From contig JAQTPI010000003.1 in assembly GCA_028748975.1 (NCBI GenBank), positions 33,064-97,063 on the forward strand: a stretch of 64,000 bases of DNA. The letters are read 5' to 3'. Below the pieces are notes generated by a model. The model saw only the letters and a list, made by a program, of their open reading frames with translations, was not told the DNA's origin and made no database searches. The stretch is from Patescibacteria group bacterium. Its GTDB lineage: Bacteria > Patescibacteriota > Patescibacteriia > UBA2196. Shown piece by piece: positions 5,795 through 31,835 of this stretch (its first letter is position 1; every line of letters starts with the position of its first letter). A program made the position numbers and the translations under genes.

Positions 5795-5930
5795 AAATTG
5801 AGATCTACGAATTTACGAATCCCGAGTACTCGGGACGAATATACAAATAGTCACATAATTTTTGCGCTTCATTCGTACATTCGTTTTATTCGTAAATTTG
5901 TAGTTCTACTTTTATTTACTTAGCTTATTA
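5795..5930. repeat. Intergenic word-palindrome, CGAAT/ATTCG family
   Basis: ctacgaatttacgaatcccgagtactcgggacgaatatac…cattcgtacattcgttttattcgtaaatttgtag. A near-identical copy is at 2397-2490. Confidence 0.8.
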
Positions 5931-6266
5931 TTATATTACAGCACTACATTTTTTACATATGCGCTGTTTTTTCTCACGAGTCAGTTCAGATTTTTCGGCA
6001 TTAATTTGAAAACCAATTCTGGTTGCTTTGCCACATTTGGGGCAAACCAGCATGACATTTGTGGCGTCCATCAGAGCCGGAAACATGATGCGCTGGCCTT
6101 TTTCGCGGTCGCGGCGCGGGCGCAGATGCTTATAGCGCAGATTCAAACCTTCCACCGTCACCATCAAGCGATCCTCATCTTTTTTAACCACCTGCAAAAC
6201 CCGGCCGCTTTTGCCGCGGTCTTTGCCTTTGATTATTTTGACGGTGTCATTCTTTCTAATATTCAT
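5931..6266 (-). CDS. rplX: Ribosomal protein L24 with a Cys4 zinc-ribbon in the C-terminal half
   Basis: N-terminal KOW motif (KNDTVKIIKGKDRGKSGRVL). The C-terminal part carries CPKCGK…CKKC at positions that are usually D/T in L24. Confidence 0.8.
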   Translation of the reverse strand: MNIRKNDTVKIIKGKDRGKSGRVLQVVKKDEDRLMVTVEGLNLRYKHLRPRRDREKGQRIMFPALMDATNVMLVCPKCGKATRIGFQINAEKSELTREKKQRICKKCSAVI

Positions 6267-6381
6267 AATTTTATAATAATGTTTTCATCTGCGAATTTTT
6301 ACGAATTTTGTGCGAATTTTGCGAACAGATCGTTCTGTGCCTATTCGCATAATTCGCAGGTAATTCGCTACTAATTCGCAT

Positions 6382-6753
6382 TTACAAAACTTCTGGTGCG
6401 AGTGAAATTATTTTATTAAACCCGGCGGCGCGCAGTTCTCTGGCTACTGGGCCAAAGATACGTGTGGCTTTCGGTTCTTTGGTTTTTGGGTCAATAATAA
6501 CGCCGGCGTTGTCATCAAAACGAATATAGATGCCGTTTTTACGGCGGATTTCTTTTCTGGTACGGACAATTACCACTTTAACCAAATCGCCTTTTTTGAC
6601 CGCGGTGTGCGGCTGGGCATCTTTGATGGTGCAGTAAACAATGTCACCAATGCTGGCAAAACGCCGACGATAGCCCGCGCCAACCTTAATTACCTGAAGC
6701 CGTTTGGCTCCGGAATTATCAGCAACATTGATTTGAGAGGCAAGTTGAATCAT
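6382..6753 (-). CDS. rplN: Ribosomal protein L14
   Basis: [24 protein letters not shown]… is the canonical L14 start. The 17 upstream codons of the ORF are translated repeat DNA. Confidence 0.9.
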
Positions 6754-6899
6754 AAATAATTTAAAGCACCAAGCTCCAAGCACCAATTTCCAAACAAATT
6801 TCAAATTTCAATAATTAAAATTTCAAACACGACGGTTTAGGATTTGGAATTTGATATTTTGAATTTGTTTGTTATTTGATGCTTGTTATTTGGAATTTA

Positions 6900-7341: not shown

Positions 7342-7431
7342 ATAATACGCTAATTAATTTGCGAATTTTTGCGAATGTGTTTGCGAATATTCGCATAGTT
7401 ATTCGCAAACATTCGCATATTTATTCGGGTG

Positions 7432-8661: not shown

Positions 8662-8803
8662 AATAATATAAAACAAATTTTCACAGATAGAGCGCGGATT
8701 TTCACAGATACACAGATTGTTTCACCTTTATACTTCTCTATTAGAGATAAATAAATCTGTGTATCTGTGTTGATCTGTCTGGTATCTGTGTCTATTTGTT
8801 TGG

Positions 8804-9415: not shown

Positions 9416-9558
9416 AGAGATAAACAAATTTTCACAGATAGAGCGCGGATTTTCACAGATACACAGATTGTTTCACCTTTATACTTCTCTATTAGAGATA
9501 AATAAATCTGTGTATCTGTGTTGATCTGTCTGGTATCTGTGTCTATCTGTTTTGATTA

Positions 9559-13588: not shown

Positions 13589-13740
13589 AGAGAAAACAGA
13601 TTTTCACAGATAGAGCACAAATTTTCACAGATACACAGATTTATTTTTCTTGTCATCCCCGTGCAAGCGGGGATCTAGAAATCTGTGTTTATTTGTGTAT
13701 CTGTGTGCTATCTGTTTTACATCTGTGGAGATCTGTTTTA
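13589..13740. repeat. Intergenic word-palindrome, CACAGAT family, with a GC hairpin core
   Basis: gattttcacagatagagcacaaattttcacagatacacagat…gtcatccccgtgcaagcggggatctag…atctgtgtgctatctgttttacatctgtggagatctg. Confidence 0.8.
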
Positions 13741-14599: not shown

Positions 14600-14760
14600 T
14601 TAAATTTTTAAGCTACGAATTTGTGTCGTTATCCCCTCCTTTCGAAGGAGGGGTGGCCGATAGCAATCGGTCGGGGTGGTTGTAATTTGTATTTTTTACA
14701 ACCCCTCTGCCCTCGACTGCTGTCGGGGCACCTCCCCTTCGAAAGGGGAGGATAACCACT
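14600..14760. repeat. Composite GC-rich palindromic element (CCCCTCCTTTCGAAGGAGGGG + GCCGATAGCAATCGG + …CCCCTTCGAAAGGGGAGG). Family copies are at 1795-1920, 17030-17170, 51705-51830 and 29560-29640.
   Basis: Perfect ttcgaa-centred palindromes, paired across a tggttgtaa…ttacaacc spacer. Confidence 0.8.
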
Positions 14761-16996: not shown

Positions 16997-17230
16997 AATT
17001 CAAGTAAATGTCATTCCGAGTCCCGCATTTGCGGGGCGAGAAATCTCGTCGCTATCCTCCCCTTTCGAAGGGGAGGTGTCCCGCAGCAGCGGAACGGAGG
17101 GGTTGTAAAATATTCTACCACAACCACCCTGCTCGCTCTCGCTCGCACCCCTCCTTCGAAAGGAGGGGATAACGATTTTATTTTCTGTATTTATTATAGA
17201 ATTCCTATAAAAGAAGTCAAATAGAAATTC

Positions 17231-26845: not shown

Positions 26846-27439
26846 TTATTTCAGCAAATCCAAATCATAAAGAATTTTTTCCACAATTAAATCATATTTC
26901 AAAATTTCCTCTTCCTTAAACCAAATTTTAATTTCCCGCTCGGCTTCTTCCTTTGTCTCCGAAGAGTGGATAATATTCCTAACCGAACGCATGTCGGCAT
27001 CAGCCAAATGATAGGAATCCACGGTAAAATCGCCACGAATGGTACCAACATCAGAAGTTAAAGGTTCAGTGCCGCCGACGAGTTTGCGCACAATGTCGCA
27101 GACACTGTTGCCCTGCCAAATCATCGCCGCCACTGGCCCCGAAGTGATGAAATCCACCAGCACTTTTTGTTTTTCTTGGCCATATTCAATGGGAGTTTTT
27201 TCAATTGGTTTGCCGGCCAATTTTTTTTCTTCAATGGCGCGCTTGCCTACTTTTTCAAACCAAACATCATCTTTTTTGTAATGTTCAAAGGCCTGCTCAC
27301 GCGTGGCAAAAACCAATTTCAAAGCCGCGAGTTTCAAACCCACTCGTTCAAAACGGCCGATGATTTCACCAATGAGTCCGCGCTGGACGCCATCGGGCTT
27401 GATTAAAATTAAAGCTCTGTCACGTTTGGATTGCGGCAT
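26846..27439 (-). CDS. ndk: Nucleoside diphosphate kinase with a C-terminal extension
   Basis: …ALILIKPDGVQRGLIGEIIGRFE… and …NIIHSSETKEEAEREIKIWF… (active-site His). Confidence 0.85.
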   Translation of the reverse strand: MPQSKRDRALILIKPDGVQRGLIGEIIGRFERVGLKLAALKLVFATREQAFEHYKKDDVWFEKVGKRAIEEKKLAGKPIEKTPIEYGQEKQKVLVDFITSGPVAAMIWQGNSVCDIVRKLVGGTEPLTSDVGTIRGDFTVDSYHLADADMRSVRNIIHSSETKEEAEREIKIWFKEEEILKYDLIVEKILYDLDLLK

Positions 27440-27539
27440 AAATGTTTTATTTACTTTACTTTCATTCTAGCACTTGAATAAAAACTGTCAAATAAAAAGG
27501 CGCCATTGTTTGCAACAAAGGCGCCAAAAAGTGTCTGCT

Positions 27540-28150
27540 CCGTTAGGCCGAACGAAAAAGTCCGGTCCTAAGGAGGTAGCGTTTCCGCATCAAACCCTCC
27601 TTTAGGAATTTGGCGACGAACGCGAATTGCACGAAATGGAGAGGGCAACCCGCCGTACCGTTTAGGCAGTCGTCACGAGCTTCTGGGCTTGTGCACCACC
27701 AGGTTGGTCACGGCGGGCAAGATAGAGTTTGTACCGAGCATTCACTCGGGTTTTGGCACCCGACAGAAGCCAAAAACTGGCGGGCCAGGTGCCAACATAG
27801 ACAAACCCTATTAACCTCTCCATGGAATGGGTTTGTGGGTTGACTGACCGAATGACGTGATCAGGCCGCCAAAGTGAATGGCGACGTGTCTCCCGTAGGG
27901 CTGCACTGTTGCCTACCCGCTACGCGGAAAAGGCGACGATTCAGCGCCAACTCCCTTTTGCCGGTTCAGTCCGAACTTCGGCCGCAAACCGCAATGGTCG
28001 CGCGGCGGGCCGCTACACAAACTCACCCCAATTTTAACGGCCCGTAAGTCCGACAATGTGCCGCTCATTCCGAGTTAGGTCATCACACTGCCAGAGCCGG
28101 TATCATCATACCGAACGCCTACGGGCCGATCTTTAAATGTACCAGCGATA
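27540..28150. ncRNA. Candidate large structured ncRNA (unclassified). A GC-rich noncoding segment.
   Basis: ~600 nt at ~55% GC with no credible ORF. On the minus strand it is bracketed by a TTGACA-N18-TATAAT promoter (28165-28196) and a hairpin plus T-run terminator (27485-27530). It contains rRNA-like and RNase-P-like short motifs (GGTCCTAAGG-AGGTAGCG, TGCACGAAATGG, GAAAAAGTCCGG). Confidence 0.4.
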
Positions 28151-28225
28151 AAAATCGCGTATTTTCATTATATATCAAGTTGATCTTTGCTGTCAAGCGA
28201 TGTTTTAGAGATTAGAGAAGAGAGA

Positions 28226-29083
28226 TTAGTGATTAGTTAATTGATTACTCTTCTCTATTCTCTCTTCTCTATTCACTATGACGTTCCCATCCAAATCCGT
28301 CCGTTTTATTATGACCTTCGCGCGCTCCAGATGATTTAGGGTGCGGGGCGAAGGATGGCCGAAAGAATTTTCACCGACACAAATGACGGCGGTTTGGGGC
28401 GAGACGATTTCTAAAAATTTTACATCGGTGGAAAAACGCGAGCCGTGGTGGCCGACTTTCAAAATATCGCTTTGCAAATTATGGCCGTATTTTTTAATTA
28501 ATTCTTTTTCGACATCAAAACCGGCATCGCCCATCATTAAAAATTTCTGATTCAAGAAATCAATTTGCGCCACGACAGAAGTATTGTTTAAATCATCACT
28601 GACTTTGCCGGCCAAATTTTCCAAAGGATAAAGAATTTCTATTTTGATATCACCGACTTCTTCAATTTCACCAGCAACGGCAATTTCCACTGGAATTTCC
28701 TGTTCTTTGATTATTTTTAAAAATTCCAAATACTGCGGGGCGGTGTGAGAAATGCCGGTCATAATTATTTTTTTGACAGTATATCTTTTTAAAATTTCCA
28801 CTAAACCAGTAATGTGGTCGGAATGAGGATGGGTTAAAATTATTAAATCCAAATCGCGCTCCCAAAATGGCATGAATTTTCCAAGCTGGGTTTGCACGGT
28901 GTTGTCCGGCCCGCCGTCAATTAAAATCGTTTCGCCCTTCCCTGTTCTGAAAAAGATGCTGTCGCCCTGACCGACATTTAAAAATACTGCCCGATCGGTT
29001 TGGAAATAATTTACATAAAAAATTGCACCAACAATTGCGGCAATGACAGCCAAAACTATAATTATTATTTTGATTCTTGACAT
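28226..29083 (-). CDS. ComEC/Rec2-related metallo-beta-lactamase-domain protein (C-terminal half of a split ComEC)
   Basis: THPHSDHITG, GDAG and VGHHGS MBL motifs after an N-terminal TM anchor. Confidence 0.8.
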   Translation of the reverse strand: MSRIKIIIIVLAVIAAIVGAIFYVNYFQTDRAVFLNVGQGDSIFFRTGKGETILIDGGPDNTVQTQLGKFMPFWERDLDLIILTHPHSDHITGLVEILKRYTVKKIIMTGISHTAPQYLEFLKIIKEQEIPVEIAVAGEIEEVGDIKIEILYPLENLAGKVSDDLNNTSVVAQIDFLNQKFLMMGDAGFDVEKELIKKYGHNLQSDILKVGHHGSRFSTDVKFLEIVSPQTAVICVGENSFGHPSPRTLNHLERAKVIIKRTDLDGNVIVNREERIEKSNQLTNH

Positions 29084-29159: not shown

Positions 29160-29495
29160 ATGAGGGGTGTTCTCGTAGTAAATGCTGACACTTTGAGTAG
29201 CCAAAAAATATTCAAAAAAGTGCTCAACGCCTTTAGTGGAACAACGGTTGTCAATAGTAAAACTTTGGCCCTGGAAGAAATCAAAAAAAGGAATTATGAC
29301 GCTGTCATTATCGGGGGAATAGTCCTTTTTTGTTCTAACAATTTTGAACTCGCTCTGGAAATATTCAAAAACACTAGCAAACATCCCCTGGTTTTTATTG
29401 AAACCAAAAACGCCGGTTTAGTGCGAATTCCTTGGGAAAAATTGGAAAACAACATTCAAGACGAAGAATTAATACGCTTGATAAAAGAATCATAA
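29160..29495 (+). CDS. Hypothetical 111-aa protein, possibly a degenerate receiver-like fold (antisense cassette splitting comEC)
   Basis: Strong SD (aaaaGGAGGgaaacgATG). YDAVIIGG and ETKNAG resemble a receiver fold loosely. The terminator gccaccatgaacacctctggtggc + T-run is followed by ATTTGTCAAAAAA. Confidence 0.45.
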   Translation: MRGVLVVNADTLSSQKIFKKVLNAFSGTTVVNSKTLALEEIKKRNYDAVIIGGIVLFCSNNFELALEIFKNTSKHPLVFIETKNAGLVRIPWEKLENNIQDEELIRLIKES

Positions 29496-29663: not shown

Positions 29664-31160
29664 TTACTCTTCCAAAATAATTCTTTTTCTTATTATATAG
29701 TATATCATCCCCATCACGGCGTAAGAAACCAAAACCCACAGAAAATTAAAATTATTAACAGGCAGATGGCTGAAAGGAATTTTGGAACACCACTCGGAAA
29801 TGTAAATTACATAATTGGCGGATAAATAGACCGGCGCGGAAAAAAGAAAAATCAAAGGCGCGCCAAGGCCGAGGCCGGCCATGATGATAAAAATAAAACC
29901 AGCCACCATTAAAATTTCCACGGCGGGCACGGCCAAAATTAAAACATTGGTTAGGGGCGCAATCAATGAAACTGTTTGAAAGCGCCAAACAGTCAAAGGC
30001 CAAGTGATAATTTGCGCCGCGAGGGTCATCGCGAGCACGCTGCGTAAATCTTTGTTTTTAAAAATTCGATGAAACAGATGGGAAAAATATGGAGAAATAT
30101 AGACCAGCCCAAAGACAGCTAAAAAAGAAAGCTGAAAACCAATATCGCCAAGGAGCAAGCGCGGGTCCAAAAGCAAAAGAAAAACCGCGGCGGCTACCAC
30201 GGCGCGGCCGGCACTGCCCAATCTTCCCTCTTTTTGGGCAAAGGCCATAATCAAGCCCATCAGGGCCGAACGGATGGCCGGGGCATTGAAACTGATTAAA
30301 AAAAGATACAAAACCAAAATGGCCACGATAAAGTTGAAAGATTTTTGGCGCGACAGGCCCAAAAATAAAAATAACTGAAAAATTAAAGCGGAAAGCAGAG
30401 CGATATGGGTGCCGGAGATGGAAATGATGTGGATGACGCCGGAGTTGGAAAAATAATTATTCAATTCTTCCGTCAATTCGGCGCGTTCGCCTAAAATCAT
30501 GGCCAAATTCAAGGCCGAAGTGGGTGAAGACAAAAATTTATTGGCGCGAGCAGCCAGGGTTTTTCTTAAACTACTGAAAAAGTAAGAAATTTTATCCGGC
30601 CAGTTTTTATTTTGATTCGGTTCCAATTTTTTCAATTCCGGATAATAGCAAACTCGATAAACTCCGCGATCGGCCAAATAACCAGCATAGTTAAAATTAT
30701 CAATTTGTTGCGGAATTTTTAAATCACAATTAACTTGAATTTGGTCGCCAGCACCAAAAATCGGGTAGAGCGCGGCATTAACCAAAATTTTATCAGAAAA
30801 AAAATCATTATCATTTTTTATTTTGCCAATAATTAATTTTTGCGTGTCATTTTTAATTTGTGGTTCTTCCGCCACCACGCCGGTAAAAAAAGTTCTGGCT
30901 TCCGGCCAAAAAGCCGTGGAATTGGCAGCGGGTCGTGTGAAATTAAAACGCCAGAGGCCGAGAACTGCGCCAGTGAGAATTAAAAAAAATATAGCTGGTT
31001 TAGGCCGCCGGAAAATTTGAAATAAAAAAAAGAACGCCAAAGCGCTCGCTAAAAAAATCAAATAAAGTAAAAAATTATCAATAGCCATTAATTTTCCCAG
31101 AGCAACACCAGCGATGAAAGAAAGGCAAAAAAATAAAAAAATATTGGCCGACCTTAACAT
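29664..31160 (-). CDS. comEC: ComEC/Rec2 membrane domain (DUF4131 + competence domain); N-terminal half of a split ComEC
   Basis: Polytopic protein with …VIHIISISGTHIALLSALIF… as the competence-domain signature. The start is trimmed to MLRSANIF because upstream codons are repeat DNA. Confidence 0.75.
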   Translation of the reverse strand: MLRSANIFLFFCLSFIAGVALGKLMAIDNFLLYLIFLASALAFFFLFQIFRRPKPAIFFLILTGAVLGLWRFNFTRPAANSTAFWPEARTFFTGVVAEEPQIKNDTQKLIIGKIKNDNDFFSDKILVNAALYPIFGAGDQIQVNCDLKIPQQIDNFNYAGYLADRGVYRVCYYPELKKLEPNQNKNWPDKISYFFSSLRKTLAARANKFLSSPTSALNLAMILGERAELTEELNNYFSNSGVIHIISISGTHIALLSALIFQLFLFLGLSRQKSFNFIVAILVLYLFLISFNAPAIRSALMGLIMAFAQKEGRLGSAGRAVVAAAVFLLLLDPRLLLGDIGFQLSFLAVFGLVYISPYFSHLFHRIFKNKDLRSVLAMTLAAQIITWPLTVWRFQTVSLIAPLTNVLILAVPAVEILMVAGFIFIIMAGLGLGAPLIFLFSAPVYLSANYVIYISEWCSKIPFSHLPVNNFNFLWVLVSYAVMGMIYYIIRKRIILEE

Positions 31161-31317
31161 AAAATTCCAAGCTCCAAGCACTAAATTACAAACAAATTCC
31201 AAGCACCAAATCCTAAATCATAAATTGTTGGCGCGCCAGGCCAATTATTTGGAATTTAGAATCTATGATTTTGGATTTTTTTAGGATTTGGAATTTGGAA
31301 TTTAGAATTTAAAATCT
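31161..31317. repeat. Intergenic word-palindrome, CCAAG/TTGG family
   Basis: aaattccaagctccaagcactaaattacaaacaaattccaagcaccaaat…atttggaatttagaatctatgattttggatttttttaggatttggaatttggaattt. Confidence 0.8.
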
Positions 31318-31739: not shown

Positions 31740-31835
31740 AAAACATATTTTCACAGATAGAGCGCAGATTTTCACAGATACACAGATCTGTGTATCTGTG
31801 TATATCTGTTTTGCATCTGTGTGGATCTGTTTTGT

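Follow-up and report, generated by a model that had tools for sequence, protein, structure and literature searches.

The stretch analysed here, hereafter the window, comprises 64,000 nucleotides of contig JAQTPI010000003.1 from a Patescibacteria group bacterium. On its minus strand, ndk (26846-27439) and a gene for an MBL-fold protein with the ComEC C-terminal domain (28226-29083, hereafter the MBL gene) are separated by a gap of 786 bp (27440-28225), in which we place the gene of a large structured non-coding RNA; the MBL gene is the 5′ neighbour of this RNA gene and ndk its 3′ neighbour. A preceding sequence-only reading of this DNA had described a gene-free region of about 780 bp between ndk and comEC-MBL, with a GC-rich core in a context of about 42% GC, without coding character and bracketed on the minus strand by a promoter and a terminator, and all of these elements are real. 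Indeed, the GC content is 0.545-0.595 across 27500-28100 (computed over 200-nt windows) against a mean of 0.42 for the whole 64 kb, of which this region is the longest GC-rich stretch, and the longest open reading frame (ORF) in the gap encodes 77 amino acids. The same reading hesitated between a divergent RNase P RNA and a novel RNA, and the evidence favours the novel RNA. We consider it probable that positions 28160-27494 of the minus strand form a stand-alone gene for a structured non-coding RNA of about 670 nt, a member of a small undescribed family found in three closely related Patescibacteria lineages.

The predicted gene (27494-28160, about 667 nt) runs from a start near 28160 to the end of the terminator U-tract. 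Its sigma-70 promoter (28167-28196) is a perfect consensus, scoring 12/12, with TTGACA at 28196-28191, an 18-nt spacer and TATAAT at 28172-28167. At the other end lies an intrinsic terminator (27494-27525), made of the hairpin GGCGCCUUUGUU-GCA-AACAAUGGCGCC (27525-27499) and of UUUUU (27498-27494), as the sequence-only reading had described it. This terminator hairpin, GGCGCCUUUGUUGCAAACAAUGGCGCC, pairs at 11 of 12 stem positions around a 3-nt loop; it was read by eye and is unlisted by the scan tool. A separate ndk promoter, also noticed in that reading, lies outside the RNA and begins right after the U-tract (27464-27491; TTGACA 27491-27486, 16 nt, TAGAAT 27469-27464), with a score of 11/12 and an extended -10 TG. 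The presence of this second promoter after the terminator marks the RNA as its own transcription unit. The strand is further indicated by the folding energy, which reaches -283 kcal/mol (z-score -6.9) for the minus strand and -252 kcal/mol (z-score -3.5) for the plus strand, a difference of 31 kcal/mol in favour of the former. Moreover, 5 of the 108 cells of the window/L132 base pairs presented below are G-U, and these would be A-C mismatches on the opposite strand, which supports the minus strand.

Homologues were found by walking the closest MBL proteins, which led to two short Joint Genome Institute (JGI) metagenome contigs, L131 and L132, both of which keep the arrangement of an MBL gene followed by a GC-rich gap. 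In L132, whose MBL is 82% identical to that of the window, nhmmer detects the RNA with E-values of 4e-26 and 9e-25 and about 70-80% identity over window positions 28035-27790; the contig stops inside the RNA, so that this homologue is partial. In L131, whose MBL is 77% identical, the MBL gene, a 912-bp gap at 50-57% GC and ndk reproduce the synteny of the window. The L131 RNA is not alignable to the window RNA by nhmmer. A covariance model, R1, built from the curated window/L132 alignment, matches L131:844-961 on the correct strand and at the correct place, with an E-value of 3e-4 in a 45-kb search with filters off and of 4.5e-5 in a smaller search. The match spans R1 positions 75-209 and takes in CGACAAAAGG, a CCCG-NAAG-CGGG hairpin, CCCU(U)ACGGGAG and the P7 hairpin. 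The motif TTGACA-N18-(T/G)ATAAT stands directly 3′ of the MBL stop codon in the window, L131 and L132. Furthermore, the L131 RNA ends in an analogous terminator, a hairpin GACGUAAUCG...CGAUUACGUC followed by UUUUUU, and its ndk apparently has its own promoter too (TTGACA-18-TAAAAT, as read from the sequence).

Is the fold itself conserved? When RNAalifold is given the uncurated MAFFT alignment of L132 with the window, it predicts 63 pairs, 15 of which carry double changes. In the hand-curated version of the alignment, where N was used as a gap placeholder to keep the MAFFT register, eight helices with 54 pairs are proposed; 98.1% of the cells are paired; the changes fall on both sides in 10 pairs and on one side in 3, and 2 cells break the pairing, so that 13 of the 15 varying pairs stay paired. 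None of 500 shuffles reached the observed pairing values, and sliding the 3′ partners by 1-3 columns lowers the pairing to 33-45% and the double changes to 0-2. Between the same two sequences, paired columns differ less than unpaired ones (23% versus 35%). Inclusion of L131 brings the number of pairs with double changes to 13, and the 19 pairs that this sequence covers are all formed. These comparisons show predicted helices that are maintained by compensatory substitutions, together with peripheral hairpins that seem to have been gained, lost or resized. The sequence-only reading had seen in the region a candidate large structured RNA, to be checked by folding and covariation with related genomes; the two related contigs, which keep the promoter and, through the compensatory changes just counted, the helices, bear it out.

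The RNA would fold into two domains, in which variable peripheral elements surround a conserved core (all coordinates that follow are on the minus strand). At its 5′ end a stem-loop can be drawn, GCGAU-UUUU-AUCGC (28145-28158), in which UUUUUAUCG(C/G)UGG is conserved in L132; the pairing is lost there, and this element is best regarded as a conserved 5′ sequence and not as a proven helix. It is followed by an insertion of 106 nt particular to the window lineage (28036-28141), which holds a long branched hairpin (28127-28039; GGCCCGUAGG...CUUACGGGCC) and belongs to the variable periphery. The alignment shows this insertion to be absent from L132, and the hairpin is predicted as closed in both the minimum free energy (MFE) and the centroid fold. 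The 5′ domain proper (27824-28029) is closed by the long-range helix P1 (28029-28016 with 27837-27824), which reads GGGGUGAGUUUGUG/CACAAACCCAUUCC in the window and GGAGAUUGGUUUGCG/CGCAAACCGUCUCC in L132, that is, three double changes over a span of about 190 nt. Within it are found P2 (28011-27980, loop CGACCAU), P3 (27971-27967 with 27846-27842), the conserved strand CAAAAGG (27960-27954), P4 (27948-27932), P5 (27927-27917), the conserved CAGCCCUACGGGAG (27903-27890) and the long hairpin P7 (27885-27865), whose loop AUUCACUUU (27879-27871) is invariant. The stretch best conserved with L132 (27796-27821), GGAGAGGUU(A/G)AUAG(G/U)GUUUGUCUAUG, is identical at 24 of 26 positions and includes the 5′ strand of P8. 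The fixed single-stranded and loop sequences are CGACCAU, CAAAAGG, CCCUACGGGAG, AUUCAC and GGUURAUAGKGUUUGUCUAUG.

The 3′ domain (27636-27823) is closed by P8 (GGAGAG/CUCUCC; AUGGAGAGG at 27823-27815 with CCUCUCCAU at 27644-27636) and carries two arms. The first, a long helix, encloses a small hairpin and P9 (27793-27755), which again shows three double changes, reading GGCACC/GGUGCC in the window and GGCGGA/UCCGCC in L132. The second arm is P10 (27718-27648; GCCCGCCGU...ACGGCGGGU). For the domain as a whole (27823-27636) the MFE and centroid folds are the same, with a z-score of -6.8 (200 shuffles). L131:1036-1245 folds independently to the same topology, with a z-score of -6.2; its P8, CCGGAGAG/CUCUCCGG, shows two double changes relative to the window, as read from the sequence, and in both RNAs the second arm is closed by CCCGCC/ACGGCGGG a few nucleotides before the CUCUCC strand. 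The remaining 3′ tail (27526-27635) contains a hairpin CUAAAGGAGG...CCUCCUUAG (27605-27568) and an ORF of 15 codons (27590-27543, MRKRYLLRTGLFRSA) preceded by a perfect Shine-Dalgarno sequence, AAGGAGG (27602-27596), 5 nt before the AUG. The pairing partner of this Shine-Dalgarno sequence is ACCUCCUUAG, a string that resembles the 3′ terminus of 16S rRNA. As L131 does not conserve the tail, the small ORF is probably fortuitous.

The absence of coding character is confirmed by several searches. The six-frame translation of the region has no Pfam match, and a search of 5.8 billion predicted proteins with the six-frame concatenate was empty at E<=10; comparing all open frames by tblastn with each of the fetched loci gave no match either. 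The protein-database and tblastn searches also tested for a degraded fragment of the gene cluster found at the site in relatives, and the small hydrophobic peptide encoded there in an outgroup has no counterpart within the RNA. In addition, the indels separating the window from L132 measure 1, 1, 1, 1, 1, 1, 2, 3, 4, 16 and 19 nt, nearly all of them non-multiples of three.

Known RNA families were searched with Rfam 15. At gathering thresholds the whole window yields four tRNAs only. At E<=10, window positions 27300-28400 give only chance matches of microRNA type to a palindrome at 28206-28278 and two weak ones of small nucleolar RNA type, and L131 and L132 give no relevant match. The sequence-only reading had named the models of RNase P, transfer-messenger RNA (tmRNA), signal recognition particle (SRP) RNA, 6S RNA and the introns as those to try; neither these nor the OLE, ROOL, GOLLD, HEARO, raiA, retron and ribozyme models match any of the three homologues at E<=10, a cut-off that, across 4227 Rfam families, may hide matches worth only a few bits, such as were used in PMC8172020. 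A tmRNA, which combines a tRNA-like domain and a reading frame for a tag peptide, is not detected by ARAGORN in the window, and the T-arm strings GGUUCGA and UUCGAAU are absent from all three RNAs. SRP RNA is characterised by its domain IV hairpin and 6S RNA by a rod-like shape of about 180 nt interrupted by a central bubble; neither model matches, and the size and branched two-domain fold of the RNA are incompatible with either. A group I or group II intron was likewise rejected, the Intron_gpI, Intron_gpII (domain V-VI) and group-II-D1D4 models being unmatched and the element having its own promoter and terminator and lying between genes, where it interrupts none. A literature search found no description of such an RNA, which is new relative to Rfam 15 and to the searchable literature.

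The RNA seems to evolve rapidly. At the DNA level the MBL gene of the window shares 82.8% identity with that of L132 and 78.2% with that of L131, and the RNA core is about 73-80% identical to that of L132; judging from these alignments, the RNA diverges faster than the adjacent gene while apparently keeping its helices. A synteny search through MBL gave homologues only at P0124 and P0127, the RNA being absent at the site in P0122, P0123, P0125, P0126 and the outgroup P0131, and the closest ndk relatives (P0002-P0005) have no homologue beside ndk. What occupies the site in the relatives that lack the RNA? In the syntenic site, the only place to which this absence applies, L088, L091, L092 and L093 do not carry it. 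On a single JGI contig represented by L088 (5823-10822) and L081 (1-5000), MBL is followed by a response regulator and a 12.6-kb cluster of type IV pilus and two-component genes; in L092 it is followed by a Pif1-family helicase (928-2550), in L093 by a DUF3800 gene (5907-6781) and in L091 by AT-rich sequence with small ORFs. In the outgroup clade the order is ComEC, MBL, a small hydrophobic-peptide gene and NDK, without the RNA; the peptide (46 amino acids, MAVRLVGGFGVVVTAIVTVAAIYDSFGWKGGIIVTLITLFVALKSD; L133 4865-5180) has a promoter placed like that of the RNA. The MBL-ndk junction is thus an insertion hot spot among close relatives. Because of its fast evolution, its patchy presence and its location at a site of differing insertions, we infer that the RNA is an accessory, lineage-restricted gene and not a housekeeping one. 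The ndk beside the L131 RNA has only 55% protein identity to that of the window, against 77% for the flanking MBL, a difference that suggests recombination or gene replacement across the junction.

The remaining genes in the surroundings of the RNA have housekeeping roles (S7, EF-G, ComEC and a P-type ATPase). comEC is split, with a DUF4131+Competence gene at 29664-31202 and the separate MBL gene at 28226-29083; between the two parts, on the opposite strand, lies an ORF of 111 amino acids without a Pfam match (29160-29495, plus strand), and L093 has a weak response-regulator-like ORF at the same place. The 3′ end of the MBL gene is overlapped by an AT-rich imperfect palindrome (28206-28278) with 32-nt arms that are 81% complementary and composed of AGAGATTAG-like units. 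It gives the MBL protein a C-terminal tail of 12 residues (…EERIEKSNQLTNH) that relatives of 271-274 amino acids do not have, and L091 carries a different AT-rich palindrome at this place. Long imperfect intergenic palindromes with arms of 30-60 nt (for example TTTCACAGATAGAGCGCGGATTTTCACAGATACACAGAT, CCCCTCCTTCGAAAGGAGGGG and GCGAATATTTGCGAATG) recur in the window as families, at 8671-8801, 9422-9552, 13606-13715 and 31740-31833, at 1802-1922, 14625-14759 and 17049-17175, and at 1343-1420 and 7347-7430; they look like families of repetitive extragenic palindromic (REP) or terminator-like repeats.

Several points weigh against our interpretation. Only three sequences are known, one of them partial (L132) and another very divergent (L131). 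One set of sequences yielded both the curated alignment and the structure, and the row of L131 was fitted to the model, so that the counts lean towards the structure. The folding z-score is not distinctive, since a 200-nt scan gives values of -5 to -9 at several intergenic places of the window that are rich in palindromes. A single-sequence model of the window 3′ domain (R2) does not detect the L131 domain, and we infer the homology of the two 3′ domains from collinearity, two short shared helices and matching MFE folds, and not from a score. As to the distribution, R1 found nothing beyond L131 in about 1 Mb of Patescibacteria loci and in the outgroup loci, and a search beside ndk in 80 other Patescibacteria genomes gave no homologue; neither did BLAST against phage and plasmid records, nor five exact-pattern scans of viral contigs. 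In an 18-mer scan of metagenomes, with a pattern picked before the homologues were known, all 32 matches were due to chance. The other GC-rich ORF-free stretches of the fetched Patescibacteria loci are tRNA clusters or hairpins, without relatives of the RNA. One such gap, in a Paceibacterota locus (L026 10225-10315), contains a tRNA-like element, GGAGAGGTGCCAGAGTGG...GGTTCGAATCCCTCCCTCTCCGCCA, with a long variable arm, unreported by the Rfam gathering search. Candidate patterns to search for the family are CAGCCCTACGGGAG-N7-GCCATTCACTTTG or GGAGAGGTTNATAGNGTTTGTCTATG.

Could the RNA be part or remnant of a mobile or defence element, such as an intron without an ORF, a guide RNA whose nuclease or recombinase was lost, a retron-like RNA or a phage-derived one comparable to many ROOL and GOLLD copies, lodged in this hot spot? 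The patchy presence and fast sequence evolution would fit, and so would the variability of the MBL-ndk gap, which holds the 12.6-kb pilus/two-component cluster, the Pif1 helicase or the DUF3800 gene in relatives and only the small peptide gene in the outgroup. We find this explanation unlikely. No reverse transcriptase, nuclease, transposase or integrase gene adjoins the RNA in any of the three loci, where the neighbours are housekeeping genes; flanking repeats were not found, no intron, HEARO, retron or ribozyme model matches, and searches of phage records, plasmids and viral contigs were negative. Besides, the place of the promoter, just after the MBL stop, is common to the RNA gene and to the outgroup peptide gene, which suggests local evolution and not an imported cassette. 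Still more doubtful is a cis-acting role within an adjacent mRNA, as a very long structured 3′ untranslated region of MBL or as a leader or attenuator 5′ of ndk. The RNA is indeed co-oriented with both neighbours, in the window as in L131 ndk comes immediately after it, and read-through at the terminator would enter ndk. However, the RNA has its own conserved consensus promoter and a strong terminator, and ndk has a separate promoter past that terminator in the window and apparently in L131; the ndk of close relatives and of the outgroup manages without the RNA, and 670 nt with two closed domains are far above the size of known leaders.

That the region is non-functional, GC-rich foreign or decayed DNA or a pseudogene that folds well by chance, appears very improbable to us. 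Its GC content is unlike that of the host, the family is tiny and other intergenic palindromes fold equally strongly by z-score; yet no frame shows any protein similarity, the promoter is conserved in three lineages, paired columns differ less (23%) than unpaired ones (35%), and neutral decay would not preserve the pairing in 13 of 15 varying pairs, 10 of them changed on both sides. The least credible of the alternatives is a highly divergent RNase P RNA of a type that standard models miss in Patescibacteria, the first of the two identities that the sequence-only reading had put forward. RNase P RNA cleaves the 5′ leaders of pre-tRNAs, is present in one copy per genome, evolves slowly among close relatives and has a long-range P4 helix formed from GGAAAGUCC near its 5′ end and ACAGAA..CCGGCUUA near its 3′ end. 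Patescibacteria RNase P RNAs are often atypical, and 10 of 35 circularised genomes of the Candidate Phyla Radiation (CPR) needed sub-threshold Infernal scores for this RNA, with helices extended or missing (PMC8172020). No RNase P match exists anywhere in the window at Rfam gathering thresholds. The string GAAAAAGUCCGG is present in the region, as are the other RNase P-like and 23S-like strings to which the sequence-only reading drew attention; they are located, however, on the plus strand, antisense to the promoter and terminator. GAAAAAGUCCGG and CCGGUAU, both antisense, could form only 4-5 mutual pairs, and the CCGGAC partner is absent, as read from the sequence. On the sense strand AAAGUCC, GGAAAG and ACAGAA are absent from all three RNAs; antisense, AAAGUCC is missing from L132 and occurs in L131 at a position that is not homologous. 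None of the three sequences gives an RNase P match at E<=10, and the 5′ and 3′ ends of the RNA are unpaired. Finally, the RNA is barely alignable between genomes with 78% identical MBL DNA and is absent at the site in close relatives, a rapid divergence and a patchy occurrence that are at odds with an essential, slowly evolving RNase P RNA.

We thus return to a stand-alone structured RNA of a new family. What could it do? A GC-rich, strongly promoted gene of about 670 nt kept in the tiny, reducing genome of a member of the Patescibacteria implies a real function. The RNA would be abundant, because its promoter is a perfect consensus, and by analogy with large RNAs already known it may act in trans through its folded core, which could serve as a scaffold for a protein partner, as a self-assembling RNA particle or as a ribozyme, in the manner of OLE, ROOL and GOLLD. 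On this view, the loops and joining strands that do not vary would provide binding sites or tertiary contacts. We lean, by a little more than even chances, towards the view that this RNA is the founding member of a new class: a large (about 670-750 nt), two-domain, fast-evolving and strongly expressed RNA of a Patescibacteria lineage, a ribozyme, self-assembling particle or ribonucleoprotein scaffold whose activity would have no parallel among known RNAs, perhaps tied to episymbiosis or to nucleic-acid uptake, as its fixed place beside comEC might indicate. New classes of large structured bacterial RNAs are rare, and earlier ones (RNase P, group II introns, OLE, GOLLD, ROOL, HEARO/omega RNA and raiA) hid unusual biochemistry or architecture. 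The very narrow known distribution limits the importance of the present RNA. It is nonetheless a compact object for study, with three natural variants, a defined core, helices backed by compensatory changes and invariant loops that can be mutated.

Comparison with known systems helps to situate it. Bacterial RNase P RNA (RF00010/RF00011; CPR forms, PMC8172020) is, like the window RNA, large, GC-rich and organised in two domains, and the window RNA comes from a reduced genome and from a phylum where standard models often miss RNase P RNA. In contrast with it, the window RNA has no P4 pseudoknot and neither GGAAAGUCC nor ACAGAA...CCGGCUUA on the transcribed strand, its ends are unpaired, its length of about 670-750 nt is nearly twice the usual one, it outpaces the adjacent protein gene in divergence and it is missing at the site in close relatives. 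The HEARO and omega RNAs (RF02033) and the other RNAs that guide nucleases of mobile elements resemble it in being long and structured, with a patchy distribution and a variable genomic spot; the window RNA differs from them in having no adjoining IscB, TnpB or recombinase gene, no transposon ends and no match to their model. The likeness extends to more traits for OLE, ROOL and GOLLD (RF01071, RF03087 and RF01998; cryo-electron microscopy, PMC12286853), which are also encoded by stand-alone genes of about 600-800 nt with a promoter and a terminator, and which are also multi-domain and GC-rich relative to the genome, with conserved joining strands and loops, variable peripheral hairpins and a neighbourhood uninformative on function. 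The window RNA is set apart from these three by the absence of a model match at E<=10 and by its host phylum, the Patescibacteria; by the absence of an OapA-like partner gene, such as OLE has, and of the phage or tRNA context of ROOL and GOLLD; and by its fast-evolving family of three members in one narrow lineage. The formation of RNA-only homo-oligomers or of a defined ribonucleoprotein is a further mark of their class. By analogy, it would work like them without being a member of their families, and it shares the architecture by which the class is recognised: a large stand-alone RNA with a multi-domain fold supported by covariation, a conserved core and a variable periphery.

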